IMG/VR virus record: IMGVR_UViG_2563366806_000001
Location: 1 to 15,507 of that record
Length of the DNA: 15,507 nucleotides
Direction: 5' to 3' (one strand)
Source: a virus
Taxonomy: Duplodnaviria > Heunggongvirae > Uroviricota > Caudoviricetes
A model generated the notes under the pieces. The model had not been told where the DNA came from and searched no databases. It saw only the letters and a list, made by a program, of their open reading frames with translations. Both the position numbers and the translations under genes were made by a program. Shown here piece by piece: positions 180 through 15,507 of the stretch; the first letter of the stretch is position 1; every line of letters begins with the position of its first letter.

Positions 180-701
180 ATGACCTACAAACAAGCCCTG
201 CGAGTTGCCGCGCGCGAGTCAAAAGCGGTCCGCCGTTCGCTGATCGACAAACTGGAAGAATTACAGCAGGCAAACTCCCCTACCCCATCGATCCCCCAGA
301 CATTACCAGAAGCCCTACGCCTGGCTGCCGAGTTAGCAGAACAGAAAATGCAGTTGGAACAACAGCTGGTGGCCGCAGCCCCTAAAGTCGATTTTGCCGA
401 CCGGGTATCAGTGGCCAATGGAATCCTGATCGGGAACTTTGCAAAGGTCGTTGGACTTAAGCAAAACGCCCTTTTCTCATGGTTGCGCCAGAACGGCATT
501 CTCATGGCTTTTGGTGCGCGCAAAAACGTATCGCACCAACAGTACATCAACGCCGGGTATTTCACGGTGAAAGAAGTGGTGTTGGATGATGAAAATGGCT
601 ACCAGATACGGCTGACGCCCCAATTAACGGGTAAAGGCCAGCAGTGGTTAACTCGCAAGCTACTTGATGCTGGTTTGTTAAAACCAGTAGCAATAGGTTA
701 A
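180..701 (+). CDS. KilAC (antirepressor C-terminal) domain protein, 173 aa
   Basis: ATG 180 to TAA 699-701. Residues ~37-170 align without gaps to the C-terminal 134 aa of the KilA ORF at 865-1665 (87/134 identical, counted by eye; shared IPQ[TS]LPEALRLAA[ED]LAEQK and TGKGQQWL). No clear Shine-Dalgarno upstream; same-frame TAA at 78-80. Confidence 0.7.
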   Translation: MTYKQALRVAARESKAVRRSLIDKLEELQQANSPTPSIPQTLPEALRLAAELAEQKMQLEQQLVAAAPKVDFADRVSVANGILIGNFAKVVGLKQNALFSWLRQNGILMAFGARKNVSHQQYINAGYFTVKEVVLDDENGYQIRLTPQLTGKGQQWLTRKLLDAGLLKPVAIG

Positions 702-864: not shown

Positions 865-1665
865 ATGCAACAAACATTCAATGCGGATATGAATATATCA
901 AACCTTCATCAAAATGTCGATCCTTCAACCACTCTTCCCGTTATTTGTGGTGTTGAAATTACGACCGACCGCGCTGGCCGTTACAACCTTAATGCTCTAC
1001 ACAGAGCGAGCGGACTCGGTGCCCATAAAGCGCCAGCTCAATGGCTAAGAACGCTGTCAGCTAAACAGCTCATCGAAGAGCTTGAAAAAGAAACTATGCA
1101 GAATTGCATAGTTTCGTTCGAAGGCCGTGGCGGCGGCACTTTTGCCCATGAATTGCTCGCAGTGGAGTACGCTGGTTGGATTTCTCCCGCGTTTCGGCTG
1201 AAGGTAAACCAGACATTTATCGACTATCGAGCTGGAAGATTACAACCTGCTATTCCGCAGAGTCTCCCTGAAGCTCTCCGTTTGGCTGCCGACCTGGCAG
1301 AGCAAAAGCAACGGCTGGAGCAAAAAATGCTTATGGATGCACCTAAAGTCGAATTCGCCGAACGCGTTGCTACCGCCAGCGGGGTTCTAATCGGCAACTA
1401 TGCCAAAGTGCTCGGCCTGGGCCAAAACTATCTCTTCACCTGGTTGCGTGATAACGGAATTCTGATCGCAACCGGTGAACGCAGGAACGTCCCCAAACAA
1501 GAATACATATCCCGTGGGTATTTCACCCTTAAAGAAACCGTGATCGATACAAGCAATGGAAGCAGGATTTCTTTCACGACTCGTATAACCGGCAAAGGTC
1601 AGCAGTGGCTGATGAAGCGATTGCTTGATGCTGGTGTGCTGGTACCTGTCGCGGCAACGCGCTAA
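865..1665 (+). CDS. kilA: KilA (KilA-N domain plus KilAC domain), 266 aa
   Basis: SD GGAG 854-857, ATG 865. N-terminal KilA-N-like segment (PVICGVEITTDRAGRYNLNALHRASG). Length and position directly upstream of repL match the P1 lytic replicon as recalled. C-terminal domain paralogous to ORF 180-701. Confidence 0.8.
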   Translation: MQQTFNADMNISNLHQNVDPSTTLPVICGVEITTDRAGRYNLNALHRASGLGAHKAPAQWLRTLSAKQLIEELEKETMQNCIVSFEGRGGGTFAHELLAVEYAGWISPAFRLKVNQTFIDYRAGRLQPAIPQSLPEALRLAADLAEQKQRLEQKMLMDAPKVEFAERVATASGVLIGNYAKVLGLGQNYLFTWLRDNGILIATGERRNVPKQEYISRGYFTLKETVIDTSNGSRISFTTRITGKGQQWLMKRLLDAGVLVPVAATR

Positions 1666-2540: not shown

Positions 2541-2666
2541 TAGATTGCTCTAATCTGGAGTCACCTGGCGTTTTCAGTATGGATTTTCTTTGGCGCGGTC
2601 TGGCCATTAGGGATCATGTTTGCTGCAACGTTTCTTCTGATGTGGGTATTCACCCTTCCAGGTGAT

Positions 2667-2707
2667 TTCTATAGAAAAAAAGCCAGACATTGATACAATC
2701 GCTGCGG
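2667..2707 (+). promoter_or_regulatory. putative hok/mok promoter and mRNA 5' end
   Basis: -10-like TACAAT at 2694-2699. Predicted transcript 5' end GGTGCTTGAGG (2707-2717) resembles hok-family mRNA 5' ends. Confidence 0.35.
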
Positions 2708-2761
2708 GTGCTTGAGGCTATCTGCTTCAGGCATTACCCGAAAAGCAGATAGAAGAAAGCC

Positions 2762-2827
2762 CCAGATAACATTACGCGTCCTGCAAGACGCTTAACATTA
2801 ATCTGAGGCCATATCTATGCTTAGCAT
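2762..2827 (-). ncRNA. sok: candidate Sok-like antisense RNA (antitoxin); ends approximate
   Basis: Minus-strand promoter: -35 TTGACC (complement of 2856-2861), 16-bp spacer, -10 GCTAAT (complement of 2834-2839). The transcript would be antisense to the mok SD and start (ATG 2817). Weak hairpin GCGTC/GACGC around 2777-2792. Confidence 0.35.
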
Positions 2828-3023
2828 ACGTAGATTAGCCTCTTACCGACCAAAAGGTCAAGGAGAAGCAGGCTATGAAGCAGCAAAAAGCGATGTTAAT
2901 CGCTCTGATCGTCATCTGTTTAACCGTCATAGTGACGGCACTGGTAACGAGAAAAGACCTCTGCGAGGTACGAATCCGAACCGGCCAGACGGAGGTCACT
3001 GTCTTCACAGCCTACGAATCTGA
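2817..3023 (+). CDS. mok: Mok-like leader ORF overlapping hok in a different frame, 68 codons
   Basis: SD GAGG 2805-2808, ATG 2817, TGA 3021-3023 (7 nt before the hok stop). Nested arrangement is typical of hok/mok/sok loci. Confidence 0.5.
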   Translation: MLSIRRLASYRPKGQGEAGYEAAKSDVNRSDRHLFNRHSDGTGNEKRPLRGTNPNRPDGGHCLHSLRI

Positions 3024-3030
3024 AAGGTAA
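2875..3030 (+). CDS. hok: Hok/Gef-family type I toxin, 51 aa
   Basis: SD AAGGAG 2860-2865, ATG 2875, TAA 3028-3030. Hand translation: MKQQKAMLIALIVICLTVIVTALVTRKDLCEVRIRTGQTEVTVFTAYESER. Single hydrophobic helix plus the conserved RKDLCE..R.G..E..F.AYE tail of Hok/Gef/RelF proteins (closest to HokD/HokC as recalled). Below the ORF-track size cut-off. Confidence 0.85.
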   Translation: MKQQKAMLIALIVICLTVIVTALVTRKDLCEVRIRTGQTEVTVFTAYESER

Positions 3031-3042
3031 GAGACCTGGCGG

Positions 3043-3053
3043 GGAGAGATCCC
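3043..3053. repeat. IS186 target-site duplication, left copy
   Basis: GGAGAGATCCC, identical to 4392-4402. Confidence 0.75.
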
Positions 3054-4391
3054 ATAAGCGCTAACTTAAGGGTTGAACCATCTGAAGAATGCGACGCCTC
3101 GGTGCCTCGTTAAGACGATGCCTCGCGTTCTTCAATTGCGTTTTGTAGGCTGTCAGGGATACTGTCCCACGAATGGCCACCTGTAAGCTCCAGATGACCA
3201 TTTTTGTTATTCTCCACAACGAGTTAGTTCTTCTTTTCGGATCCGGCACTTCTGGGGGGGAAATCCAGCGATGGCTGGATTATGTCGTCAATTAAAAATG
3301 CGGCGAGTAGATTAGCAAATATCCACGCTTTCGCGAGTTCAGGTTCCTTTGCACGCAAAGCATCCAGGTGCAGCAAACTTTTGAGCCGCTTAAAAGCCAG
3401 TTCAATTTGCCATCGCAGACGGTAACAATCAGCCACTTGCTCTGCTGAATATTCATCTTCCGGTAATGATGTTAGCAATAGCACATGGCCCGCTGCTTCC
3501 AGCGTTTCCGCCTGAACTACTCGTCCTTTTCGACGATTCTCGCTGAGCAGTCGGGTTTTACTGATTAATGCTTTTTCGGGAGGAAGTGATACGGCAATGA
3601 GACGTGCCGGAAAGGGAGCTCCGGCTTTTTTATTACCTGAATTGCCTATCATTACAGTGGTTTCACCGTTCTTACCGCAATCCAGCCCGCGCAGAAAACC
3701 CATCATGTCAAAGCGCATTCCTTCTGCAGTTAACCAGCGCAATCCTCGCCAGTGAACCCGGACGATATAATCAGCTTCTCCAAAAGCAAGTGAGCGGATA
3801 CATTCGGGACGCGAACCGAATCCCCGGTCAGCAATGCGTATCTCGTCTGCCGTTTGCGCAAATCGGTCCAGCCGTTCAGCGTCTCTGCTGTCGGTTAGCT
3901 CAAAATCAGTGAACTGACAGGTATGAGGATCATATCCCATATGTAGTCGCCATTCAGCGCTGCCGCCCCCGGGCGCACTGATTGCTGTTCCATCGACAAG
4001 ACGCAATCTCTTTCCGCTTGTACAACCCGTAACTGCGGCGCGTACAGCAAGTGTTTGTGCGGCAAGTATGCCAAACCAGTCGGCGGCATTCCGCAGCCGC
4101 TTCAGGAGAGCCACGTCAGATAATGTTGCAACGTCATGGAGCTGAGCCCATGCAGTGACTTCACGTAATGACATCCCCCCGGGGCCGTAAGCCAGCCCCA
4201 GACGTAGCAGAGTTGCAGCATCACGAATTTCGCGGCGGCGGGTTAGAGCCCCGGCATTACGTGCCGAAGTATCCAGTTCTTCGGGCTTACCAATATGGGC
4301 CAGAATTGCTGACCAGTTATCGTGAGAGTAATTCATCGGCACGTTAAATCATATCAGGCGTAATACCACAACCCTTAAGTTAGCGCTTATG
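3054..4391 (-). mobile_element. IS186 insertion sequence (IS4 family), complete, 1338 bp
   Basis: Perfect 23-bp terminal inverted repeats CATAAGCGCTAACTTAAGGGTTG at 3054-3076 and (complement) 4369-4391; single transposase ORF; flanked by an 11-bp direct repeat. Confidence 0.9.
3224..4336 (-). CDS. insL: IS186 transposase, 370 aa from ATG 4336 (ORF track extends to GTG 4342)
   Basis: Protein MNYSHDNWSAILAHIGKPEELD...YRLRWQIELAFKRLK... recognised as IS186 InsL; fills the element between its inverted repeats. Confidence 0.9.
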   Translation of the reverse strand: MNYSHDNWSAILAHIGKPEELDTSARNAGALTRRREIRDAATLLRLGLAYGPGGMSLREVTAWAQLHDVATLSDVALLKRLRNAADWFGILAAQTLAVRAAVTGCTSGKRLRLVDGTAISAPGGGSAEWRLHMGYDPHTCQFTDFELTDSRDAERLDRFAQTADEIRIADRGFGSRPECIRSLAFGEADYIVRVHWRGLRWLTAEGMRFDMMGFLRGLDCGKNGETTVMIGNSGNKKAGAPFPARLIAVSLPPEKALISKTRLLSENRRKGRVVQAETLEAAGHVLLLTSLPEDEYSAEQVADCYRLRWQIELAFKRLKSLLHLDALRAKEPELAKAWIFANLLAAFLIDDIIQPSLDFPPRSAGSEKKN

Positions 4392-4402
4392 GGAGAGATC
4401 CC
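4392..4402. repeat. IS186 target-site duplication, right copy
   Basis: GGAGAGATCCC, identical to 3043-3053. Confidence 0.75.
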
Positions 4403-4426
4403 CGCCACTCTTCGTGTGTCAGGTAT

Positions 4427-4438
4427 CCTCAATGCACC
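4427..4438 (+). promoter_or_regulatory. displaced hok mRNA 3' fold-back (fbi-like) element
   Basis: CCTCAATGCACC is near-complementary to the predicted hok mRNA 5' end GGTGCTTGAGG (2707-2717). Now separated from the hok body by IS186. Confidence 0.35.
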
Positions 4439-4452
4439 CTTTCCTCTCCAAA

Positions 4453-4478
4453 TAAAAAAGCTCCCGAAGGAGCTTTAA
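4453..4478 (-). terminator. rho-independent terminator ending the minus-strand late operon
   Basis: Stem AGCTCC (4459-4464) / GGAGCT (4469-4474), loop CGAA. Plus-strand A-run 4454-4458 gives the U-tract for minus-strand transcripts; a short T-run on the plus side makes it weakly bidirectional. Confidence 0.6.
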
Positions 4479-4495
4479 AATACAAGGGATAACTC

Positions 4496-5005
4496 TTAAT
4501 CCCACTCAATCCAGTTGTAGACGATACGAAGTGACGGGCGCACAGCGGCAGTCACATCTTCGGTACTAAAGTCGATTGCATCACTGTAGATTTTGCAGTC
4601 CAACATTTCAATTGTTGTAGCAGCTTTTGTCACAGCGTTAACCCCGGAAGATTTGGATTCAGGGGTCGCAGCCATCGTGATATCAACATAGTCCTTCGCC
4701 GCAATGCGATCTTTAATGAACTGAAGAATATCGCCTTCGATAGTCTCCACGCACTGGACCTGGATTTCCCCAGAGTTTCGAATTGGACCGTGCTGGTTGA
4801 ACTTCACACCATTCGGACCATAGTCCTCCACATCCTCGCGGGTCATTTCAGGAATTTGCGACGTGCGAACCAGTACGCTGATATCTTCATGGCCTGCAAA
4901 AGTGAGCTGGAATTCAGAAGATACCAGTCGTTCGCCTTTGGCCGCGTTGGCAGTATAGCGGCCCTTAATAAATTTACGGTTTCCCTTAGTGTTATTGTGC
5001 CCCAT
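4496..5005 (-). CDS. late structural protein, possibly tail-tube-like, 169 aa
   Basis: Last gene of the co-directional late operon, downstream of the sheath gene and directly before the terminator. Size and aromatic C-terminus (RIVYNWIEWD) are reminiscent of contractile-tail tube proteins; assignment from memory, unverified. Confidence 0.4.
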   Translation of the reverse strand: MGHNNTKGNRKFIKGRYTANAAKGERLVSSEFQLTFAGHEDISVLVRTSQIPEMTREDVEDYGPNGVKFNQHGPIRNSGEIQVQCVETIEGDILQFIKDRIAAKDYVDITMAATPESKSSGVNAVTKAATTIEMLDCKIYSDAIDFSTEDVTAAVRPSLRIVYNWIEWD

Positions 5006-5016
5006 ATAAAATCCTT

Positions 5017-5598
5017 TTACTGGAACGCCCGAACAATATCGGAGCTGTTATATATCGAAGAACCAGTCAACTGGAGGTTGACGGTGTTTTTCAGGAAATG
5101 CCCATTGCTGTCCCTGGGCGCATCGAGATCGAAACTTATGTCCTGGATAGCGACATCAATGATGTTGATCCGGCGACCAATGTTTAGCGTCACACGCTCC
5201 GGGATTCGACCACCAATACTGGCATCTTTAAGTTCCGGGCTAATCATCGCTGACAATGCGGCGATAGCTCCTGAAACCTCCGTGAATGGGTCAAACAAAG
5301 CGATGAAAGTTACTGGCAGCGTGAAAGTCGGCGGTGTTCCCCCTTCCCAAACCATTAAGCTGTTCCAACGGGCAACCGACGTTGTTTCAGTACCAACCTG
5401 CGCAAAACCACTGAAGGCACCAGCAACAGATCCCATGGACATACCGGTAAACGGCGCTTCCCAATTCTGGGCCATGTTCATTGCCGCTCCCTGGCTGATA
5501 TATCCGGTAACCTGGTACTGAGAGTTCGTTAAAGTAACTTTCAGATATGGCGATACACCGTCAGCCTGGCTGTAAACCCCATAAGGTATAGGTGCCAT
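5017..5598 (-). CDS. late-operon protein of unknown function, 193 aa
   Basis: ATG start; 11-bp gap to the next gene; co-directional with structural genes. No recognisable motif. Confidence 0.4.
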   Translation of the reverse strand: MAPIPYGVYSQADGVSPYLKVTLTNSQYQVTGYISQGAAMNMAQNWEAPFTGMSMGSVAGAFSGFAQVGTETTSVARWNSLMVWEGGTPPTFTLPVTFIALFDPFTEVSGAIAALSAMISPELKDASIGGRIPERVTLNIGRRINIIDVAIQDISFDLDAPRDSNGHFLKNTVNLQLTGSSIYNSSDIVRAFQ

Positions 5599-5633
5599 TC
5601 AAGTTAAAGGCCGGAGTTCTCCGGCCTCCTCCT

Positions 5634-6449
5634 TTAGCCGAGGCGCTTACGGCGCAGTTTCATTGACTTTTTGCGGGCCAGTTTTGCCGCGCCGGTCTGG
5701 GCTTTACGACGCGCTTTTTTCAGCGCCGATTTTTGAGCCGCAGTCAGACGTTTTTTACGCAGGCGTTTACGGATGAGTTTGATCTCACCGTTACGAACAA
5801 CCTTCTTAAATGCTTCAGTCAGCATTTCATCAGAAGTGCCAGCAACAACAAACGCCGCTTCCAGTTCGTCACGGTCGTCGCTATCTAAACCAGCGATAGA
5901 GGCACCAACATCAGCAGCTGCGTCGTCGTCTTCATCGTCAGCCAGTGCTTCGATCAGGTCATCATCTACACCGCATGCTGCGAGGAAGTCAGCAACATTT
6001 GCCCATGCTTCGTTATAGGCATCGTCCTGTTCTTCTGTAACTTCGGAGTCGTCGTCATCAGAGATACCAGCGATAGCCTGAACGAAACCATCAAGGGAGT
6101 CGAAAGTCAGATCACCGCTATCAGCCCAGGCGAAAACGGCGTCGGCTGCATCACTCAACGCATTCTGCATAGCACTTCGATTTGCAGCTTCCAGAATCAT
6201 CTGGTGCGCCTGTTCGACGGTCCATTCTTTACCGTCTTTCCCTTCCAGGATTTGCTCAGGAGCCGTGGCAGATGGAGCGTTATCGTTAGTCTGTGCCGCC
6301 GGTTCCGGATTATTATTAATAACCGGATCTGTTGTCGGTTCGGCGCTTGCTCGGGCAGACTCCATCAACTGCACAGGATCAGAGTTCAAAGCGAAACGAG
6401 ACAGTCCATTCCCCAAAAATGCCCCGGATTGAAAAAAGTTTTTGCTCAT
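5634..6449 (-). CDS. charge-segregated late-operon protein, 271 aa (acidic core, Lys/Arg-rich C-terminal tail)
   Basis: ATG 6449, 9 nt after the sheath stop. Central Asp/Glu-rich tracts (DDDDSEVTEEQDD, ADDEDDDAAAD, DSDDRDELE); last ~50 residues almost all K/R (KLIRKRLRKKRL...RRKRLG). Confidence 0.45.
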   Translation of the reverse strand: MSKNFFQSGAFLGNGLSRFALNSDPVQLMESARASAEPTTDPVINNNPEPAAQTNDNAPSATAPEQILEGKDGKEWTVEQAHQMILEAANRSAMQNALSDAADAVFAWADSGDLTFDSLDGFVQAIAGISDDDDSEVTEEQDDAYNEAWANVADFLAACGVDDDLIEALADDEDDDAAADVGASIAGLDSDDRDELEAAFVVAGTSDEMLTEAFKKVVRNGEIKLIRKRLRKKRLTAAQKSALKKARRKAQTGAAKLARKKSMKLRRKRLG

Positions 6450-6458
6450 TGTATTTCC

Positions 6459-8048
6459 TTACTTAATAAGCAGCGGTACGCCCTGGATACGACGGGCTAC
6501 GCCAGTCGGGCAGCAGGCCCAGACTACTTCCCATTTATCGAATTCCGCCTGCGTAACTTTCAGCACATACGGTTCTGTACCGTCAGCATCAGGATCACGA
6601 GGAGCCACCAGAGCGCCGGAGGCGACAAAGCGATCCAAAAGTTTGGTCATCCCTTTAGTCAGGCCAGACTCAGTAATGCCGTCCGGGTTATGCTTCATCT
6701 GTCGGGCTAACTGGACAAAGAAACGGCTGATTGCGTTCATCAGGGATGGGACGTGCTGGAAATGCAGATAGTTGTCCTGCGTGCAGCAAGTTAAAGCATC
6801 ATCGATGATCATCTGGCCCGAAGTACCTACAGATACTTTATTGAGTCGGCCCTTGACCATAGCTTCTTCGTCCGGGGTGTCTTCAGGATACAGCGGCTGA
6901 AGTGATGCACGAGCAATGACGGCACGTTCTTCACCAGCCGGTGAGTAATGCCAACCGCCGACATCGGAGTTTTTCTTGACGCCACGAGCTTTCGCCGCAT
7001 ACGCCGCGCCAGACAGACCGAAGACCACGCGGGATTGGGTCCATTTGTCTTTGCAGGAGAACGGGAAATGATAGACAGCACAGCTTACATAATCGGTACC
7101 AAGTAAACCGGTATCTTCAACAGCAGAGATCGCTTCCGTGTACGTCAATGTCGGTTTGACATCAAAGAAGCCATCAATCAAGCGATCAGAACAGATATTA
7201 CCTAACGCAGTGATCGCCGCATTGTCATAGCAACCCAGGCCGAGAACAGCGGTGTACATGTACGGCGCATTGTTCAGCACTTTCACCGCACGCAGGTAAG
7301 CAGCAGTGGAAATGTTCGACTGATCGCCGTTGGTACCGCCAGTGAACGCCAGCGATTTTTTATTTGTTACTTTCGCCGTCGAAATCAGCTCTTCATTAAC
7401 AACCGCGCGCAGATATTTAGAACGGGCTTCCAGAGCCGTAGGCAGATAACACAAGCGGCCCATGTCATCTTTCGCTTCTTCCGCCAAAGACACAGTGTGT
7501 GTCTCCAGGGTCGTTACCACACCGAGCGAAGTCGTCTGGGTCAGTTTTAAGAGGAAGCGTTCATTACCCGCGCTGTCCGCTGTTGCCGTTTCGATGGTTA
7601 ACTCACGGGTAGGAGAAATACACGGATCACCATCATCAACGTAGATAGCAAAGGCTTCGCCGCTATCAAGTTCAATTTCAGAACCGTATGGCAACGCACT
7701 GTAAGCCGGTTCGCCTGATTCATCGAACATAATAATCGGGAACTTCGCATCATCCGGAACAGCACGGACAACATAACCAGACGTTTGCTGAATAGCTTCG
7801 TACACATGGCGAATTGGTTCGAACTGTGAGCCGGAGGACGGCTTCAGCGGTTCGCCGAGAACATCTTCGTAATTGGACTCAGTAACCGCAAGAACAGTAA
7901 ACGGCTTGCCACGCGCAAATACGCCAATACCTGCCCACAAGCTGCTATTTAATACAACACCGGTAGATAACGTCGCATCGGCATTGATCGGGCTAACAGC
8001 GACACCGGATGCATTACCTAATGACTGTTGAATTGAATATTGAGACAT
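6459..8048 (-). CDS. contractile tail sheath protein, 529 aa
   Basis: N-terminal ...VTESNYEDVLGEP and C-terminal ...GGWHYSPAGEERAVI motifs resemble conserved sheath signatures (T4 gp18 ...TFGQP / ...TWMSPAGYNRGQI, recalled). Follows the putative head gene as P1 gene 22 follows 23. Confidence 0.6.
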   Translation of the reverse strand: MSQYSIQQSLGNASGVAVSPINADATLSTGVVLNSSLWAGIGVFARGKPFTVLAVTESNYEDVLGEPLKPSSGSQFEPIRHVYEAIQQTSGYVVRAVPDDAKFPIIMFDESGEPAYSALPYGSEIELDSGEAFAIYVDDGDPCISPTRELTIETATADSAGNERFLLKLTQTTSLGVVTTLETHTVSLAEEAKDDMGRLCYLPTALEARSKYLRAVVNEELISTAKVTNKKSLAFTGGTNGDQSNISTAAYLRAVKVLNNAPYMYTAVLGLGCYDNAAITALGNICSDRLIDGFFDVKPTLTYTEAISAVEDTGLLGTDYVSCAVYHFPFSCKDKWTQSRVVFGLSGAAYAAKARGVKKNSDVGGWHYSPAGEERAVIARASLQPLYPEDTPDEEAMVKGRLNKVSVGTSGQMIIDDALTCCTQDNYLHFQHVPSLMNAISRFFVQLARQMKHNPDGITESGLTKGMTKLLDRFVASGALVAPRDPDADGTEPYVLKVTQAEFDKWEVVWACCPTGVARRIQGVPLLIK

Positions 8049-8107: not shown

Positions 8108-9814
8108 TTACTCAGAGTCACCGGCATCAATTGTGTCGCCGCTTATAAAGTTAAGCCCGCCTTTTTTGGCCATTGTCAGCGTTACACGAGTGAAGTAATC
8201 AGCGCCGTTGCGTGGGTGCATATCGTTGATAGCCGAACCCCACAGCGTGGTACGGTTGACCAGCGCCGGAGTGGTCGGATGCTGGAACGGGATGGCCGGG
8301 ACAGCATCACCAGTCACGAAGCCTGCTTTACCCGGATTTTCATCACGGACGTAGCACAGCACATCCATCGAGCTGAACTGAATGTTCTCTGTCGTTAAGT
8401 TCTTACAAATACCAGCAGGTACTTCGTACACTTTCACGTTACCGAACAGGGTACCGATGTAGTGAACATACGGAGTCTGGATATAGTCTTCGGCTGGCTG
8501 GAAGAAATCCTTCGGCAACTGTTTGAAGAAAGATGCTGCATCAGCACCAGCAAACATCCCCATCGCACCAGAAGATTTAACGCGCTCAATAATGTCGCGA
8601 TATACAGTCTGGAATTTGCCACGAATGATGGTTGCCCATACATCAAAGGACTGGTTAACCGGCAGAGCGATGTCAAAGGTGTCGGTCGCAAGAGTACGCC
8701 AGATCATGATGCGAAGACGCAGCATATCCTGTTCATGAGACAGGTATTCCTTCAGGGTGCGGAACTGTAGGGAACCCAGGTCCAGACCAAATTCACGCTG
8801 TGCTTCATACGCCGCCTGTACCGTGTGCTCAGCCGCGATAACGAACTGACTTGGGGGCAGGGTGTATTTCTTCATTTCGTGGTTGATCAGCGGGATCAGC
8901 TCAGGAGCGGCTTCAATATTGATTTCCGTCTCAATTGCGATCTCAGTGCCTTTATCCGGCGCTTTGGAGAACGACAGGGCAATCTGACCAATGTTGTAGT
9001 TCAGAGAGCAGGTAACAGTGATTTGCTCACCAGCAGCATTAGTAAACGAGTGAAGTAGGCTGCCGGAACCGTTATCAACAACAGACTTAATACGGTTAAC
9101 GTAGATGTTAGTGCGACCTTTTCGGATTGGTACATTCTGGCCTTCGAAGTCTTCCATCTTGAAGGTTGCGGTTTTGCTGGTGCCATCGGAGCTTGCCACC
9201 AGCACATAGCGGCGACGTAACTGGCTGTACACACCGACGGATTGCATGTCCAGAACATCACCAGCAGCATAAGAACCAAAAGATGAACCTGCCACGTTAA
9301 AGACTTCATAGATGTCGGACTGGTCACGCGTAACCGGAATGAAGGTACACGCATCAGCGGTAGCTGCCCCCAACTGAACAGGCAGGATCATCGCGAGGAA
9401 TAAAGGCAGACGCATAACACCGTCAGAAACGCTCATCATCTCTGCTGCGACGGATTCCAGCATCGCTTTATTAGTGGCATCCATGCTATTGCGGGTGGAC
9501 TCAATCAGGCAGTTTTCCAGCGTCTGGTGGCAGGAGGCCAGAATTTCCGGACGCGGCATAGATTTATGTGCTGCGGCGTAGTCAGCCAGTGCACTTGCCC
9601 ACGCTGTAGCGATTTGAGCGGTGGCATTATCAGAGATACCCGCAAAAACCGGGTCTTTACGTGCAGCTTCAAGGATAGATGCGGCACGCGCGGCATCATC
9701 TTTAATGAATTGGTTATCAGTACCGAACTGCGCAGTGCTTGCCCAGCCAAGCACAGCTTTAGAGCGTTTTGCGATATCTGCAATACGATTCTGGTATTCG
9801 CGTAAGTTACTCAA
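8108..9814 (-). CDS. putative major head protein precursor (P1 gene 23-like), ~568 aa
   Basis: First gene after parB/parS, same strand. ORF track starts at TTG 9835, but TTG 9814 has a good SD (AAGGAAG, complement of 9821-9827, 6-nt spacer); no in-frame ATG for ~90 codons. Alanine-rich helical N-terminal ~110 aa is consistent with a cleaved propeptide. Confidence 0.45.
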   Translation of the reverse strand: MSNLREYQNRIADIAKRSKAVLGWASTAQFGTDNQFIKDDAARAASILEAARKDPVFAGISDNATAQIATAWASALADYAAAHKSMPRPEILASCHQTLENCLIESTRNSMDATNKAMLESVAAEMMSVSDGVMRLPLFLAMILPVQLGAATADACTFIPVTRDQSDIYEVFNVAGSSFGSYAAGDVLDMQSVGVYSQLRRRYVLVASSDGTSKTATFKMEDFEGQNVPIRKGRTNIYVNRIKSVVDNGSGSLLHSFTNAAGEQITVTCSLNYNIGQIALSFSKAPDKGTEIAIETEINIEAAPELIPLINHEMKKYTLPPSQFVIAAEHTVQAAYEAQREFGLDLGSLQFRTLKEYLSHEQDMLRLRIMIWRTLATDTFDIALPVNQSFDVWATIIRGKFQTVYRDIIERVKSSGAMGMFAGADAASFFKQLPKDFFQPAEDYIQTPYVHYIGTLFGNVKVYEVPAGICKNLTTENIQFSSMDVLCYVRDENPGKAGFVTGDAVPAIPFQHPTTPALVNRTTLWGSAINDMHPRNGADYFTRVTLTMAKKGGLNFISGDTIDAGDSE

Positions 9815-9959: not shown

Positions 9960-10030
9960 GTGGGAATTTCAGTCTGAAATTCTCCTAAAAAACACATGCA
10001 AATCATAATGTTAGTAATGAAATTGGTGCG
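9960..10030. other. parS-like partition (centromere) site downstream of parB
   Basis: 19-bp palindrome GAATTTCAG-T-CTGAAATTC (9964-9982) built from inverted ATTTCAG heptamers (cf. P1 ParB box A ATTTCAC); IHF-consensus-like AATCATAATGTTA (10001-10013); further heptamer TGAAATT (10018-10024). Confidence 0.45.
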
Positions 10031-10078
10031 GGACATTTTAGGAAGGGGAGGGGCTAACACCACCTCCCACCAGCGGGA

Positions 10079-11044
10079 TTATTCCCCAGCAGACATTTTC
10101 CCAATGATTTTTTTTATTGCTTCGTCAATTTCAGTTTGCACTTCAGACGGGAGTCTGGAGAACTCGTAGGCGACAACCCGTTTTTTCGGATCGGACTTCT
10201 TTCGAGCATATTGGCGACGGTCAGAGAAGTCTCGCAGCTTCTCAACCACCACAGATTTAACCGGCGCGGGCTTCAGGCTTTTGCTTTCCGCTTTGAAGAT
10301 AGCCAGTATCTTCGCTTTATCCTCTTTCGCGCCCTCAGTCTCTGCAATTCGTTCGCGCACCGTATCAACCAGCTCTTCAATAGGCACGCTTTTAGCGTTG
10401 GCATCCTCGGAGATCTGGAGCAGTAACTGGTAATCTGGCAGGGCGAGATCGCTGGCAACAGGGAAGACAGCAATCATCTCATCCGGCACCGCTGCCGCCT
10501 GGAACGCGCGCGTAACTTTAGCCTTTGAAATGTTCTCAGCGCGGGCGATCTCTTCTTTGGTCATGCTCTTACCATACATAACCTCGAAGCGTTTACCCAG
10601 TTCGCGCAGGGTGTGTTCGCGGGCTGTCTGGATATCAATGGCCAGCTGGCGTGCATCCGCCAGGCTGATCTCATCTTTCGTCACCAGAATCTCAAATTTC
10701 GTTTCATTGAAGATACACGCAGCGCGGCGACGTGATCCGTCCAATACCTCAATGCGCTCCCCAACCATACGACCGATAGCCGGGAAGAACTGTTGCAATT
10801 TAATGGTGCGGGAAATATCGCTTACCGACTCAGGGGTGAGCAGAGACTGATCGCGGCCGTTAACTGCCGGGTCAACGAACGTGCGCGACTCAATCTCACC
10901 ACTCAGCACAACGGTAAGCAAAAATTTAGCCTGGCGGCCAGATTTTAGGGTAAAGATTTTGGTGCCTTCACTGCCTTCAAGCATGCGAGCAAACTCGGAG
11001 CTATTCTTGCCCAGCACTCGTCCACGGGAAACTATTTTTTTCAT
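10079..11044 (-). CDS. parB: ParB partition protein (P1 ParB-like), 321 aa
   Basis: Overlaps the parA stop by 4 bp (ATGA). Protein recognisably similar to P1 ParB (e.g. FDRRQYARKK... C-terminus, central HTH region SKAKVTRAFQAAAVPDE). Confidence 0.9.
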   Translation of the reverse strand: MKKIVSRGRVLGKNSSEFARMLEGSEGTKIFTLKSGRQAKFLLTVVLSGEIESRTFVDPAVNGRDQSLLTPESVSDISRTIKLQQFFPAIGRMVGERIEVLDGSRRRAACIFNETKFEILVTKDEISLADARQLAIDIQTAREHTLRELGKRFEVMYGKSMTKEEIARAENISKAKVTRAFQAAAVPDEMIAVFPVASDLALPDYQLLLQISEDANAKSVPIEELVDTVRERIAETEGAKEDKAKILAIFKAESKSLKPAPVKSVVVEKLRDFSDRRQYARKKSDPKKRVVAYEFSRLPSEVQTEIDEAIKKIIGKMSAGE

Positions 11045-12252
11045 GCCGCCTCACCCCTAACAAACTCAATTCGATCAAACACAGCCTTAGTGAAACGCTC
11101 GGCCTCGGTTCGTGCCTTCTTCAGCGCCTCTGCACTGCCTGGATACGATTGCGGGTTGGCACTGATTACGGTGTCGAAAGACTCGCCGCATCGCTCAAAT
11201 CCATCCAGACGAGGCAGAGAAGAGTCCAGAATGTTGCTGGCGTAAACCTCACGCGCAAGGCTGTGTGATGTCTCGTGATCGCGCTTGCCGGTCATCTTCG
11301 ACATAAAACCAATGCTGGCGCTTAAACGCGGTTCTACGCCTTCCTCCTCCAGTTGCTCCAGCATTTCTGGCAGACGGGTGAGATATTTCAGTGTTGAGTG
11401 GAAGTCAACCTGGGCTGGTGGGGTAGGGGTAAGCAGCAAATCGCTGGCCGCCAGACCGTTGAGCAGGAACGGATCCAGGTGTGGACCGGTATCAATAAAG
11501 ATAAAGTCATAATCATCAGCAACACGATCAATGATATTGCGTCGAAGGATTTCGTACTGATTTTGTCCGGGAAGATGCTCTTCAACCAGCTCTTTCCATT
11601 GGCTGGCAACAAAGCCATCGTCGATAGAGGCTGGAATCACGTCTACGCCAGGAACGATGGTCGGACGAATCACCTCTTTGCGTAGCGTCTCCGCGTCCAA
11701 GTCGTTCAGCATCGCCTGCGCGGCGGTTTCCAGGATGGAACCAATACTGTGAGTATGGTCGAGGAACATTGTGCTGGATGCCTGAGGGTCAAGGTCAATT
11801 ACCAGAATGCGCAGATCGTGACGCAGTAAATCCTGATGCACACGCAGAGCGTGCGCCAACGTGACTGTGGAAACCGTTTTGGATACGCCACCCTTCAGGT
11901 TTACGACAAAAATAACGTAAGGCGATTTGTGAATGTCGCGATATTTTGGGATCTTACGGTGGGCATAGATATCAATGACGTTCTGGATGGTCAGCGCGTA
12001 CTGTTCAACGTTACCGACCTGTTTCTTGTTGAACTGGTACCCATCATCTTCCATCTCTTTGATGGCCTGCTCCACAATGCGGCGGCTCAGCTTCGGCAAC
12101 TTTGCCACAGCGTTACGAGTGAACGTCTGATAATACTCGGTCTGATTGAACTCTTTGCGCTGATCTTCAATATCCTGACTCATGGCCTTAAGTAATGCGC
12201 TTGCACGAAGAGCTATGGTGCCGACACCGCCGTAATCGCGTTTCATCATCAT
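11041..12252 (-). CDS. parA: ParA partition ATPase (P1-type), 403 aa in track; third ATG at 12246 is the best-spaced start
   Basis: Walker A KGGVSKT; long N-terminal regulatory extension typical of P1/F-type ParA; SD AAGGAG (complement of 12253-12258); strong resemblance to P1 ParA (FVVNLKGGVSKTVSTV..., ...LPRLDGFERCGESFDTVISANP...). Confidence 0.9.
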   Translation of the reverse strand: MMMKRDYGGVGTIALRASALLKAMSQDIEDQRKEFNQTEYYQTFTRNAVAKLPKLSRRIVEQAIKEMEDDGYQFNKKQVGNVEQYALTIQNVIDIYAHRKIPKYRDIHKSPYVIFVVNLKGGVSKTVSTVTLAHALRVHQDLLRHDLRILVIDLDPQASSTMFLDHTHSIGSILETAAQAMLNDLDAETLRKEVIRPTIVPGVDVIPASIDDGFVASQWKELVEEHLPGQNQYEILRRNIIDRVADDYDFIFIDTGPHLDPFLLNGLAASDLLLTPTPPAQVDFHSTLKYLTRLPEMLEQLEEEGVEPRLSASIGFMSKMTGKRDHETSHSLAREVYASNILDSSLPRLDGFERCGESFDTVISANPQSYPGSAEALKKARTEAERFTKAVFDRIEFVRGEAA

Positions 12253-12276
12253 CTCCTTATCATTTCGTATGAGTGA

Positions 12277-12338
12277 ATTGTACGTTTGATTCTGCTACGT
12301 GCAACTTATTTTGATTCGTGCGTAAATTATTGCACGTA
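12277..12338 (-). promoter_or_regulatory. parA promoter with inverted-repeat operator
   Basis: Minus-strand -35 TTGCAC (complement of 12299-12304), 16-bp spacer, -10 TACAAT (complement of 12277-12282). Perfect 9-bp inverted repeat TACGTGCAA (12296-12304) / TTGCACGTA (12330-12338) overlaps the -35. Confidence 0.5.
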
Positions 12339-12362
12339 AAGAAATGGCGATGAGGCTATTAG

Positions 12363-12645
12363 ATGTGTGCTGGAGGGATGATGCAGGACCAGAATGTGCG
12401 ATAGAGGGAAGTCGCATTGAATTATGTGTTGTGGAGGGATCGCTGGTATCAAATATGTGCGCTGAAGGGAAAGATAGAAGATTAGATGTGCGCTGGAGGG
12501 AAACTTGGATGGTTAGATGTGTGCTGGAGGGAATGTCTGGGCAAACTGCGTGGCGCAACCCTCCAGCGCACACCAAAAACAGGAAAATGGGCAGGCATTC
12601 CCGGCAGCGCACATTTTTCAAATGCAGCTGCCCTCCAGCACACAC
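12363..12645. repeat. incA-like iteron array: nine RepA-binding repeats (6 direct, 3 inverted)
   Basis: ATGTGTGCTGGAGGGA-type cores starting at 12363, 12394, 12424, 12455, 12486, 12517; inverted copies at 12559-12573, 12599-12614, 12631-12645, the last abutting the repA stop. Confidence 0.85.
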
Positions 12646-13506
12646 TTATTCGGGAAGTTTCAGCTTTGGATTGCGAGAATGGACGATTACAAAACTTTCC
12701 CGGCCTTTCTTCTCAATTGAACAGTCGAGATAGCCAATTGTTTTAAGCTGTTCTATCGCTTTCTTAATGATACGGTTTTGCTCGCCAACAGCTGACTGCA
12801 AAGCCAGGCGCTCACGGATTCGCGCGAACGATAGCGGCAACGGGTTCTGCGGAAGGCTTTCGATGAAAGTGTAAATGGCTTGTGCAGCTTCTTTCTTCGG
12901 AAGGGCACGCAAGGCGTGGTGTTGCAACAGAACGCGATAATCAAGCTGGAACAGCTCCCAGAGCTTCGAATCGGCCTCCAGCTCTATCAGATCAAGGTCA
13001 GCATCAAAACGCCCGACCTTCAGCAGACCAGTCTGATAGCCGCCTTTAGCATCTTTTCCGCGCTTAAAAGCGATACCCTTGTTACGCAAGCGTCCAAGTG
13101 ATTCATGAATGGTTAAACGCAGTTTCGCATCCAGACGTTTTGAGGGGAAACCACAGGCTTTAGCGAACTCCTGAAACGATAACTGGATGGTGTTTGAAGA
13201 CAAGCCGTATTTGCTGAACGCGTAGATGACACCGATCCACGTTTTGAAATCAGTATCCATATCGAGTCGAGGACCGGTGATTTTAATATCATCGTAACCC
13301 TCGGCTTTAGCTATCTCCAGCTGGGAAAACGCTTTGGTGGCATCAATCTCTTTACTTTCTCCTTTGCTCTTTGATGGCTTCGGAACGAATACCCCCAAGC
13401 GCATCAACGCTACAGGCTGCACAGTGTTGTTTGAATTAACTGTTAGTTCTTTTGCCTTACTTTCAATGTCTGCGTAAAGAATATCGGAGATAAATGATTG
13501 ATTCAT
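12646..13506 (-). CDS. repA: RepA plasmid replication initiator (P1 RepA-like), 286 aa
   Basis: ATG 13506, TAA 12646-12648; flanked by iteron arrays on both sides; protein matches recalled P1 RepA in length and sequence. Confidence 0.9.
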   Translation of the reverse strand: MNQSFISDILYADIESKAKELTVNSNNTVQPVALMRLGVFVPKPSKSKGESKEIDATKAFSQLEIAKAEGYDDIKITGPRLDMDTDFKTWIGVIYAFSKYGLSSNTIQLSFQEFAKACGFPSKRLDAKLRLTIHESLGRLRNKGIAFKRGKDAKGGYQTGLLKVGRFDADLDLIELEADSKLWELFQLDYRVLLQHHALRALPKKEAAQAIYTFIESLPQNPLPLSFARIRERLALQSAVGEQNRIIKKAIEQLKTIGYLDCSIEKKGRESFVIVHSRNPKLKLPE

Positions 13507-13519
13507 ATTACTTTTTCCG

Positions 13520-13783
13520 AATTATGTGGATAGTTTTTATAAGTGGTGATAACTACCCAGGCTTTCCCGTCAGCACACATCCTATATCCCGCCAGCACAC
13601 ATTAGCAACCCGTCAGCACACATTTTTATCCCTCCAGCACACATCGTTTTCCCTCCAGCACACATCGCGATACACTTCTAAGCCAGACGTGGCGCGGCCT
13701 GCAACGATCAGGGATCTATATGGATCTAATTGGGATCTGTATGGACCTAATTATTGGATCTACCCAGTGGATAATGTGGATAA
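13520..13783. other. oriR-like plasmid replication origin
   Basis: DnaA-box-like TGTGGATAG (13525-13533); five iterons; five GATC sites (13706, 13713, 13723, 13734, 13757) in short A/T-rich repeats; tandem DnaA boxes AGTGGATAA (13766-13774) and TGTGGATAA (13775-13783). Confidence 0.8.
13565..13665. repeat. incC-like iteron array: five repeats at ~21-bp spacing
   Basis: (T/A)CCC(G/T)(T/C)CAGCACACAT at 13565, 13587, 13608, 13629, 13650, same family as the incA repeats; lies in the repA promoter/origin region. Confidence 0.85.
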
Positions 13784-13785
13784 GT

Positions 13786-13810
13786 GAAAAACCGGCCAAC
13801 ATAGCCGGTT
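13786..13810 (-). terminator. terminator after the Cys/His-rich ORF, shielding the origin
   Basis: Stem AACCGGC (13790-13796) / GCCGGTT (13804-13810), 7-nt loop, followed on the minus strand by a T-run (complement of plus-strand A-run ending 13789). Confidence 0.5.
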
Positions 13811-13823
13811 GGAAGGAAGGGTA

Positions 13824-14210
13824 TTATTCTACGCTTTCGATAAGAAGACCATGTTCATAACATTTAAGCTCATCGCCTTCGTACAGGAATTGGTATCCAA
13901 TACCACCATTTTCATGGACATTAGGGAATAACTCATAACTCACTGAAGAGCAAATCACACCAATGCAGCGATCAACGCCTTCTCGTTCTTCAGTGCTGAA
14001 AAAATCCTCTTCGGTAAGGACACATTGCTCATCAGCATAGGTCGGAAATACATGCTCGATGCAATCCGGGTGTTTTAAACCAAGCTGATCGGCAAGCTCG
14101 AAAGCATGACGGTATTGTTCAGATCCTGGCTTGCCAACAGTGATGTGCTCAATTTTGTAGATTGAAGTTGCTTTGTTGATAGTTTGCTTTACTGTTACTT
14201 TATCAGACAT
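13824..14210 (-). CDS. hypothetical Cys/His-rich protein, 128 aa
   Basis: ATG 14210, TAA 13824-13826. Motifs HPDCIEH, CVLTEE, CIGVIC, CYEH suggest metal binding. Occupies the position of P1 upfA as recalled. Confidence 0.55.
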   Translation of the reverse strand: MSDKVTVKQTINKATSIYKIEHITVGKPGSEQYRHAFELADQLGLKHPDCIEHVFPTYADEQCVLTEEDFFSTEEREGVDRCIGVICSSVSYELFPNVHENGGIGYQFLYEGDELKCYEHGLLIESVE

Positions 14211-14221
14211 AAAAATCCCTT

Positions 14222-14554
14222 TTAGTTACCTCTGATAGCGCGGTTGTAATCATTAACGTTGCGATTCTTCCTGTTAATCCCCATCAGCATCGTTTCTGTA
14301 TCGAGGATATACGCTGGCAGATCATCAAAATATTCACTGCTAAACTCTGGCATCCTGCACATAAATGCACTTTTGGGGGCAGGGTGGTTAACCTTTGTCG
14401 GCGTCGGCGTTAAATTCGCTGATCGACTGCCGGAGCAACCGCTGAGTGTCAGCAGGAATGCGCTGGCGAACATTACCCGCCGCAACCAGTTGTTTCTGAA
14501 CTTCAGCTTTTCGTTCCATTTGCCTGTCAGCATATTTGGCTTGTTCTGATTCAT
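14222..14554 (-). CDS. lipoprotein, candidate o-spanin (Rz1-like), 110-aa precursor
   Basis: SD AGGAAG (complement of 14561-14566) 6 nt before ATG 14554. Signal peptide with lipobox LSGC; Pro-rich mature N-terminus (TPTPTKVNHPAP) with a further Cys. 5' 167 nt lie inside the preceding ORF in another frame. Confidence 0.55.
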   Translation of the reverse strand: MNQNKPNMLTGKWNEKLKFRNNWLRRVMFASAFLLTLSGCSGSRSANLTPTPTKVNHPAPKSAFMCRMPEFSSEYFDDLPAYILDTETMLMGINRKNRNVNDYNRAIRGN

Positions 14555-14810
14555 TTTTCACTTCCTGGCTGTGAAAATGTTGCTCTGCTTTGTTCATCGT
14601 CTCAATGGTCTGGTTAAGATCCATTATTGACTTATCACGTTCCTTAACAGCCTGATCAAGACTGCCAATTTTCTCCATGGCTTGCTTTAGCTGATGACGT
14701 TCCCATGCAAACCCAGCACCAACAAGTGCGCAAATCAGAACAAGAACACCAGTAGCAGCAAGTTTCTCCTTCAAAGACAAAGCTGTTTTTAACGTAGAAA
14801 AGAATGACAT
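14388..14810 (-). CDS. type II membrane protein, candidate i-spanin (Rz-like), 140 aa from ATG 14810 (ORF track starts at TTG 14837)
   Basis: SD GGAGG (complement of 14816-14820) 5 nt before ATG 14810. One N-terminal TM helix (LAATGVLVLICALVGAGFAW) then a charged helical domain. Its 3' end overlaps the lipoprotein gene. Confidence 0.55.
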   Translation of the reverse strand: MSFFSTLKTALSLKEKLAATGVLVLICALVGAGFAWERHQLKQAMEKIGSLDQAVKERDKSIMDLNQTIETMNKAEQHFHSQEVKNESEQAKYADRQMERKAEVQKQLVAAGNVRQRIPADTQRLLRQSISEFNADADKG

Positions 14811-14849
14811 GTCTTCCTCCTGAAGAAAAATTATCAATGAAGTCCTTTG

Positions 14850-15386
14850 TTACTGTGCCGCTTTGTTTAATTCATCAAGAACAGAATCAGGAACCAAAGC
14901 GGCAACTGCGCTGGCTGTGCTGACCTTATTTGCTGATGCTTCCGCAAGCGCGGTACCGATAGCATGGTTATAAGCAGTTATGGCTACGTTGGCGCTTTCA
15001 TTCGCTCGTTCATACTGCTGTTGTAACGCAGTTGTGGGCGTTGTTGTCTGGTTGAAAACAACCCCAAACTGTTCAGTTGCTACTTTCAGAGATTCAATTT
15101 GCTCTTCTGTTAGTGCTGGTGGGGGAGTGGCAGTGCCGCCGCCTGAACCAGAGCCTGACGAGCTTCCTGAGCCAGTATTAAGGGTCTGGTTAATCTCCCC
15201 CATAGCAGCGACTAAACTTGATGTATTAAGCGCGTTAACAGCGTCCTCAAGCGATTTAGTAATATTCACATCACCAATGGCAATAGAGATCGGCAGTTCT
15301 GAAACTTCTCGCTCATTAGCACGGCAGTAAACATCCCAACCAATATCGAGTTGAAGCAGCATTGACAGATCTGCATAACCAGCCAA
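14850..15386 (-). CDS. hypothetical protein with Gly/Ser-rich linker, 178 aa (start uncertain)
   Basis: ORF-track start is TTG (complement of 15384-15386) with no convincing SD. Internal linker TGSGSSSGSGSGGGTATPPP separates two Ala-rich segments. Same-frame stop upstream at 15474-15476. Confidence 0.45.
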   Translation of the reverse strand: MAGYADLSMLLQLDIGWDVYCRANEREVSELPISIAIGDVNITKSLEDAVNALNTSSLVAAMGEINQTLNTGSGSSSGSGSGGGTATPPPALTEEQIESLKVATEQFGVVFNQTTTPTTALQQQYERANESANVAITAYNHAIGTALAEASANKVSTASAVAALVPDSVLDELNKAAQ

Positions 15387-15507
15387 CAGGTCCGCGTGCT
15401 TAGTTGCCAGTTCTCCAATGTTCGTTAAGTCGGTTGTGGTTGTTCTTATCGTTGAAACGGTGATGCTGCCAACTTACTGATTTAGTGTATGATGGTGTTT
15501 TTGAGGT

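Follow-up and report, generated by a model that had tools for sequence, protein, structure and literature searches.

A charge-segregated protein encoded after the sheath gene of P1-like phages is probably an enlarged relative of the T4 prohead-core protein gp68

The product of bacteriophage P1 gene 21, gp21, is probably a core or accessory scaffold protein of the prohead, related to T4 gp68 but larger, that would be processed and removed as the head matures. We came to this reading from a homologue of gene 21 encoded in the window, by which we mean the whole stretch of 15,507 nucleotides that was analyzed. A prohead-core role accounts for the charge pattern of the protein, for the conservation of that pattern, for its protease motifs, and for its absence from virion proteomics and structural maps. 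As judged from sequence profiles, the "unknown family" status of gp21 is resolved: the protein appears to belong, as a divergent and enlarged member, with the prohead-core proteins of the gp68 kind, and it does not represent a new type of system.

The window carries a P1/P7-type plasmid prophage in which repA, parA, parB, gene 23, gene 22, the target open reading frame (ORF), pmgG, and bplB follow one another on the minus strand; beyond bplB lie an IS element and then kilA and repL on the plus strand. The target ORF (5634..6449, minus strand) runs from ATG to TAA over 271 codons, is the homologue of P1 gene 21 (ORF56, YP_006524) and P7 upf54.2, and shares 96.9 to 99.3% DNA identity with these two genes and their relatives. 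Its location in a head/tail operon right after the sheath gene, as first described, was confirmed. The operon, all on the minus strand, begins with gene 23 for the major capsid protein (8108..9814) and gene 22 for the tail sheath (6459..8048), proceeds through the target ORF to pmgG for the tube-linking baseplate protein (5017..5598) and bplB for the major tail tube protein (4496..5005), and ends at an intrinsic-terminator-like hairpin with a T-run (4457..4476). The target ORF starts 9 nt past the sheath gene, and its ribosome-binding site, AAGGA (6456..6460, minus strand), read directly in the sequence, overlaps the sheath-gene TAA and so couples the ORF tightly to gene 22. The position directly past the sheath gene and ahead of the tube genes was kept in all P1-like relatives examined (P1, distant prophages, and one metagenomic relative). 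The original prediction was right, in general terms, to call such a protein unusual between sheath and tube genes, yet the arrangement is a conserved one among P1-like phages. A viral contig scan returned only near-identical P1-like loci.

Several other features of the window were recorded. A second, stable hairpin (5609-5626, minus strand; −23.8 kcal/mol, z −4.4) lies past the stop codon of gene 21 and ahead of pmgG, and it partly sequesters an AAGGAGG located 30 nt upstream of the pmgG ATG, there being no nearer Shine-Dalgarno sequence. P1 and P7 differ by one stem base each, with pairing kept as G-U, and the hairpin may set the level of pmgG translation. Between bplB and repL, about 1.9 kb (2555-4453) replaces the P1 pmgF-rlfB-rlfA segment; it contains an IS-type DDE_Tnp_1 transposase ORF (3224-4342, minus strand; E 1.6e-26), and its flanks are 97 to 98% identical to P1. 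At the other end, the match to P1 breaks off near 9981, within the parS region, and blastn aligned none of the parB, parA, and repA genes of the remaining stretch (9982-15507) with the P1 par region, while the adjoining gene 23 is about 97% identical. By these comparisons, position ~9981 is a mosaic boundary beyond which a different partition/replication module appears to begin. Finally, an ORF at 180-701 (plus strand), which aligns within P1 ant1/ant2, and KilA (865-1665, plus strand) have a closely similar C-terminal domain, seen in the translations as PEALRLAA(E/D)LAEQK ... GKGQQWL.

Charge is distributed very unevenly along gp21. Residues 1 to 220 have a net charge of −39 and the last 51 residues one of +22. 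The first 70 residues are roughly neutral (3 K/R against 8 D/E), residues 111 to 220 hold 4 K/R against 34 D/E, including the runs DDDD131, DDD162, and DDEDDD171, and residues 221 to 271 hold 23 K/R and a single D/E. Since 23 of the 33 K/R fall within the last 51 residues (hypergeometric P = 4e-12), the segregation is far beyond chance. The same pattern, defined as an N-terminal part of −15 or lower and a last 55-residue segment of at least +12, was found in 229 of 235 family members. The charge-segregated 271-residue protein announced by the original prediction is therefore borne out, as are its near-neutral N terminus and acidic core; the description of the tail as almost pure Lys/Arg was overstated, K/R making up 45% and A/L/S/T/Q/G the remainder.

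Routine tools matched the protein to no named family, in line with the first description. Scans of Pfam and NCBIfam gave no family match, and a PHROG scan placed the protein in PHROG 1053, a family without an assigned function; when the family as a whole was scanned, phrog_1053 alone was returned, except that two members reached E 0.02 on phrog_14114. Relatives numbered 111 in a 90%-clustered database and, by profile, 621 clusters at 50% identity, 404 of which fell below E 1e-10, with a typical length of 210 to 270 residues. The best conserved part of the family is the basic tail, with the consensus KVVRNGKVxLIxKRxRKxRxSxAQKAALKKARRKAxTxAAKLARxKSMKLRxKRG, in which V217, R219, G221, Q239, and A246 are invariant.

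An AlphaFold2 model, built with a 47-sequence alignment, consists of a disordered N terminus, a helical domain spanning residues 70 to 205 (pLDDT about 90), a flexible linker (209 to 223), and two C-terminal helices (237-250 and 253-270, pLDDT 72-89). The following segments, all on the minus strand, can be placed on it. Residues 1 to 30 (6360..6449), predicted to be disordered, end in Q-L-M-E30/S, a candidate head-protease site, the slash marking the putative cut. Residues 66 to 70 (6240..6254), in a flexible linker, carry the further candidate protease motif QILE69/G. The predicted all-helical acidic domain (residues 70 to 205; 5835..6242) contains MILE87/A, DLIE167/A, and the Asp/Glu runs. 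Within the low-confidence linker, residues 209 to 213 (5811..5825) carry MLTE212/A just ahead of the basic module, which covers residues 213 to 271 (5637..5813), has a mass of 6.8 kDa, and bears a net charge of +25. The module is made up of a VVRNGxV stretch, modeled at low confidence and without secondary structure, an AxQxxxLKKAxRK segment, and a C-terminal RxKSMKxRxKRxG. One relative, P0220, has two tandem copies of the module.

Structure prediction had been proposed as a check in the original prediction; fold searches with the helical acidic domain (residues 70 to 205) found no significant structural neighbor. With regard to P22-type scaffolding proteins, which bind coat protein through a basic helix-turn-helix at the C terminus, gp21 offers its two predicted C-terminal helices and no structural match. 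A resemblance of gp21 to ribosomal L34/S20, noticed by eye, was judged compositional. The model, disordered in part and otherwise all helical, has no tube beta-sandwich, and cryo-EM assigns the P1 tube and baseplate proteins to other genes, which argues that gp21 is itself neither a tail tube nor a baseplate protein.

The lead to T4 gp68 arose while T4 neck and head genes were being checked. T4 gp68 is a protein of 141 residues with a layout like that of gp21, an acidic N-terminal part followed by ...PLNE/FIVKHVSARGEI...KRRKALGLS. In a profile-profile comparison with hhalign, the alignment of 229 gp21-family members matched that of 17 diverse gp68 proteins (Vibrio, Aeromonas, Acinetobacter, Alishewanella, and RB43- and RB49-like) at 96.6% probability (E 6.1e-10) over 105 columns. 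The aligned span pairs the C-terminal 111 residues of gp21 (161 to 271; 5637..5969, minus strand) with residues 10 to 141 of gp68, which is nearly full length. The 47-member gp21 alignment gave 93.4% (E 2.5e-7) against the same 17 proteins, and comparisons with a single gp68 or a narrow gp68 alignment were suggestive (34 to 38%, P about 4e-4). Landmarks common to the two families are a hydrophobic-x-E before the module, V..G.V, AxQxxxLxKAxRR, and ...K[SA]MK.RK..G[LM] at the C terminus; MLTE212/A itself aligns with PLNE67/F of T4 gp68, as a conserved hydrophobic-x-Glu-small motif.

Controls were scored alongside the real comparison. Against a real score of 50.5, the reversed alignment scored 13.8, and 40 column shuffles confined to the acidic and basic halves scored 18.3 ± 3.4, with a maximum of 24.9. 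For the basic module alone, the real score was 32.4 and the shuffled one 11.2 ± 2.3. The failure of the reversed and shuffled controls rules out composition as the cause of the match. Proteins of T4-like Bacillus phages bridge the two families, with hhalign values of 99.8% to gp21 and 92.6% to gp68. The relationship is invisible at the profile-to-sequence level: a HMMER gp68 profile scored about 0 to 22 bits on the gp21 family and did not separate it from charge-preserving decoys, and databases consequently do not connect the two families. PF26830, the Pfam model of gp68 as precomputed in the protein database, is carried by no gp21-family protein; the PHROG models of gp68 are 1049 and 14114, the latter being the one reached by two family members at E 0.02. 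A large protein search with the gp68 profile returned close gp68 relatives only, among the matches listed, and so added no separate confirmation. hhalign comparisons of gp21 with T4 gp67 and gp22 gave probabilities of 0.9% and 0.4%, and the first 160 residues of gp21 have no counterpart in gp68, gp67, or gp22. Altogether, the C-terminal 111 residues of gp21 are, at the profile-profile level only, homologous to nearly full-length T4 gp68. The original prediction had named beforehand what would speak against it, namely a clear relationship to a routine scaffold or tail-assembly chaperone whose relatives keep this charge pattern, and this is essentially what was found, through T4 gp68 and ~230 relatives.

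Likeness to gp68 extends beyond the aligned region. Each protein has an acidic N-terminal part and a basic C-terminal module with a hydrophobic-x-Glu directly ahead of it; each is encoded among the late structural genes of a myovirus with a Glu-cutting head protease and is absent from the finished virion. The differences are considerable as well. gp21 has 271 residues against 141, the ~160 additional N-terminal ones forming a disordered stretch and the helical acidic domain, and the basic module of gp68 is interrupted by ~14 inserted residues. In T4 the gene order is 20-67-68-21; in P1, gene 21 lies between the sheath gene and pmgG, and prt and pro are adjacent elsewhere with nothing between them. 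Like T4 gp67 and gp22, both of which are degraded by the head protease, gp21 is highly acidic and rich in L/I-x-E, although it has no detectable sequence relationship with either. The single gp21 chain combines an acidic stretch like that of the gp67 tail with a basic one of the gp68 type.

The same basic module occurs with acidic low-complexity flanks in SP-15 SP15_037 (L093:8404-9420), in vB_BceM-HSE3 gp066 (L092:8524-9453), and in the metagenomic proteins P0107, P0109, and P0111. The module matches have HMMER E values of 1e-8 to 4e-5 in 5.8 billion sequences and 99.8% by hhalign. In contrast to gp21, these proteins are 300 to 470 residues long and carry the module internally, and their genes, which have no assigned function, follow the gp13 neck gene. 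In the T4-like Bacillus phages and metagenomic relatives, invariant Glu residues stand on both sides of the gp68-type module. A gp14-like neck protein was considered for this group, given its place after gp13, and rejected: the flanks are acidic and of low complexity, with no gp14 similarity.

P1 Pro cleaves gp23 between E120 and S121 (PMC9024508). That site reads AMLE/S in P1 and in the window; the T4 head protease cuts after L/I-x-E. Across the 229 gp21 relatives, Glu is present in at least half of the sequences at only five columns. Two of these, E30 and E212, are almost always hydrophobic-x-E followed by A/S/G, and the other three never are; at the E30 column, Glu occurs in 66% of the relatives and is almost always in the hydrophobic-x-E context. 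Over the acidic parts of 232 relatives, the motif [LIMVF][LIMVF]E[ASG] occurred 474 times where shuffles predict 76, a 6.2-fold enrichment, while three permuted control motifs ranged from 0.88- to 1.36-fold; the z-score of this enrichment is inflated because the sequences are related, but the contrast with the control motifs stands. Longer relatives contain tandem ALLES, MFES, or LFES repeats. In two relatives, P0170 and P0200, the repeats read hydrophobic-hydrophobic-Asp-small instead, which hints at a lineage-specific protease specificity.

Among the proteins compared, the motif is associated with substrates of Pro. gp23 has three copies (E49, E105, and the mapped E120), all within its cleaved N-terminal propeptide of 120 residues (9455..9814, minus strand), and none in the 448 mature residues. 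DarA has a single copy, DLLE68/A, and its cryo-EM density begins at residue 70; Pro itself has seven copies. gp21 has four exact copies (E30, E69, E87, and E167) and the variant MLTE212/A; the segments around E30 and E212 are modeled at low confidence and are presumably flexible. There are none in the sheath protein, PmgG, BplB, or ParA, and one each in ParB and RepA, so that the gp23 propeptide, gp21, ParB, and RepA are the only carriers in the window. These data suggest that gp21 is a candidate Pro substrate, with the motif conserved at E30 and E212. The specificity of P1 Pro that underlies this comparison is based on one mapped site, in gp23, and one approximate structural inference, in DarA; on that basis, [LIMVF][LIMVF]E[ASG] might be used to predict where Pro cuts. 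As for Pro (339 residues, L103:2015-3034), it has no detectable Peptidase_S77 match, and its C-terminal third is coiled-coil-like, with weak Dynamitin and ATG16 matches, and full of the cleavage motif. It resembles protease-scaffold fusions of T4-like contigs, and its RefSeq name, "tail fiber protein," looks wrong.

gp21 does not figure in published accounts of the mature P1 virion. In the LC-MS/MS table of the virion, ORFs 54 (BplB), 55 (PmgG), 57 (gp22), and 58 (gp23) are present and ORF56 is missing, and according to that paper P1 has no identified capsid scaffolding protein (PMC9024508). Cryo-EM work has identified the tube as BplB, the tube initiator as Tub, and the tube-linking ring as PmgG; its models assign almost all P1 virion proteins, and gp21 is missing from them. 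Our literature search found no paper discussing gp21 itself. In T4, the core contains about 240 copies of gp68; assembly can proceed without the protein, the L/I-x-E protease degrades it, and it has been linked, with gp67, to head-size determination.

We infer the assembly contacts, the actual cleavage, and the head-size role of gp21 as follows. The protein would be made late, together with the capsid protein, and would co-assemble within the procapsid. Its basic two-helix tail may anchor it electrostatically to an acidic partner, for which the acidic domain of another gp21 subunit, the gp23 propeptide, and the inner shell surface are candidates. Activated Pro would cut it at flexible sites, at about E30, E69, and E212 and perhaps at E87 and E167, into an acidic piece of roughly 19 kDa and the basic peptide of 6.8 kDa, and these pieces would leave the head or be broken down before or during DNA entry. 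On the model of T4 gp67 and gp68, gp21 may bias the choice of P1 between big and small heads.

Several observations run against a prohead-core role. The homology is at the profile-profile level only, and the first 160 residues lack a counterpart in T4 core proteins. The gene lies directly past the sheath gene and before the tube genes, not in the portal-protease interval that gene 68 occupies in T4. Depositors have named gene 21 homologues "gp21," "baseplate or tail tube protein," "tail tube protein," or "hypothetical," and NC_005856, the P1 record, labels the gene "baseplate or tail tube." The position and the label speak instead for a nonvirion tail-assembly factor, catalytic or chaperone, that is discarded from the finished tail; it might act in baseplate or tube initiation or keep sheath or tube subunits from polymerizing prematurely. 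Absence from the virion fits such a chaperone as well as a scaffold, and in the T4-like Bacillus phages the related gene stands between the gp13 neck gene and the tail genes. Tail assembly chaperones such as lambda gpG/gpGT and P2 gpE/E+E' are also acidic, helical, encoded among tail genes, and absent from virions. However, gp21 has no sequence or fold similarity to gpG/GT-type chaperones, no PHROG or Pfam tail-chaperone match, and no place between tube and tape-measure genes; the P1 tape-measure gene lies elsewhere, with PmgB proposed as its chaperone. A gpG-like tail chaperone or a sheath antipolymerization factor, taken as specific candidates, had nothing beyond gene position in support and were set aside. 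Moreover, the homology is to a head-core protein and to no tail chaperone; gp21 carries the head-protease motif four or five times and the tail proteins of the same operon not at all; and the enrichment and tandem repeats of this motif in the family have no rationale in a cytoplasmic tail chaperone.

The tail label presumably derives from tail-less amber mutants. That old phenotype may reflect polarity on pmgG and bplB or a misassigned allele. NC_005856 shows one late promoter ahead of gene 23 and the next ones only inside bplB; with no promoter between gene 23 and the interior of bplB, a gene 21 amber mutation could exert a polar effect on pmgG and bplB and so look like a tail defect. Deletion of pmgG gives no tails, and pmgG and bplB, both needed for tails, have no classical gene number. 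It is also plausible that a nonessential gp68-like protein would not itself give conditional-lethal mutants. This explanation of the label is plausible but unproven, and the conserved post-sheath position is unexplained; for these reasons we regard a tail-assembly role as unlikely yet still worth keeping in view. Of the three options offered by the original prediction, an assembly factor is thus the one that survives, in the head rather than the tail on the evidence of gp68 homology.

A second of those options was an injected internal protein. The intact protein is absent from virion proteomics, and what might be retained is the 59-residue basic fragment: after a cut at E212, this +25 peptide would remain on the DNA inside the head, like T4 internal proteins or adenovirus mu, as a counter-ion, condensing, or pilot factor that may be injected, the acidic part having masked it until the DNA arrives. 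This overlaps with the prohead-core reading, in that both need prohead entry and Pro cleavage. The conserved cleavage motif falls exactly at the N-terminal border of the basic module, and the module is the most conserved part of the protein, even in otherwise unrelated larger proteins, as expected of a universal ligand such as DNA. All of its tryptic peptides are 7 residues or shorter; the published trypsin LC-MS/MS therefore could not have detected it, which leaves room for retention in the head, and DNA-bound peptides would be invisible to symmetrized cryo-EM, another reason for such a peptide to stay hidden. On the other hand, there is no positive sign of retention, and the invariant V217, R219, G221, Q239, and A246 suggest a defined protein interface and not generic DNA coating. 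Because gp68, according to T4 reviews, is broken down into peptides that leave the head, we rate this variant low, a little below a tail-assembly role. The remaining option, a DNA mimic or antidefense effector that would direct an acidic surface and a nucleic-acid-binding tail against host restriction or nucleic-acid enzymes, is very improbable. The strongly acidic helical domain and basic tail recommend it by composition only, and P1 is known from the literature to package antirestriction proteins. Yet the gene belongs to a late structural operon and lacks a separate promoter, the family has been kept within the structural modules of phages that differ greatly, the fold searches gave no significant match, and gp68 homology explains the composition. 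gp21 shows neither the fold similarity to mimics nor the early or independent expression of Ocr/ArdA-type proteins.

Head assembly in P1, a workhorse phage, is to this day described without a separate scaffold or core protein. A prohead-core role for gp21 contradicts both that description and the current annotation. If it is right, the tail tube/baseplate annotation would be corrected for a family of several hundred sequence clusters, gp68-type proteins would be placed far outside the T4 group, and the motif would offer a validated-looking means of predicting Pro substrates. If instead the basic peptide were packaged and injected, it would be a phage analogue of adenovirus mu/VII, and packaging would probably hold as well for the 74-residue C-terminal fragment of T4 gp68. 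As a prohead-core protein, which we consider its probable role, gp21 would strengthen the view of P1 head assembly as T4-like and would provide a concrete candidate for the long-known, poorly explained big, small, and minute heads of P1.
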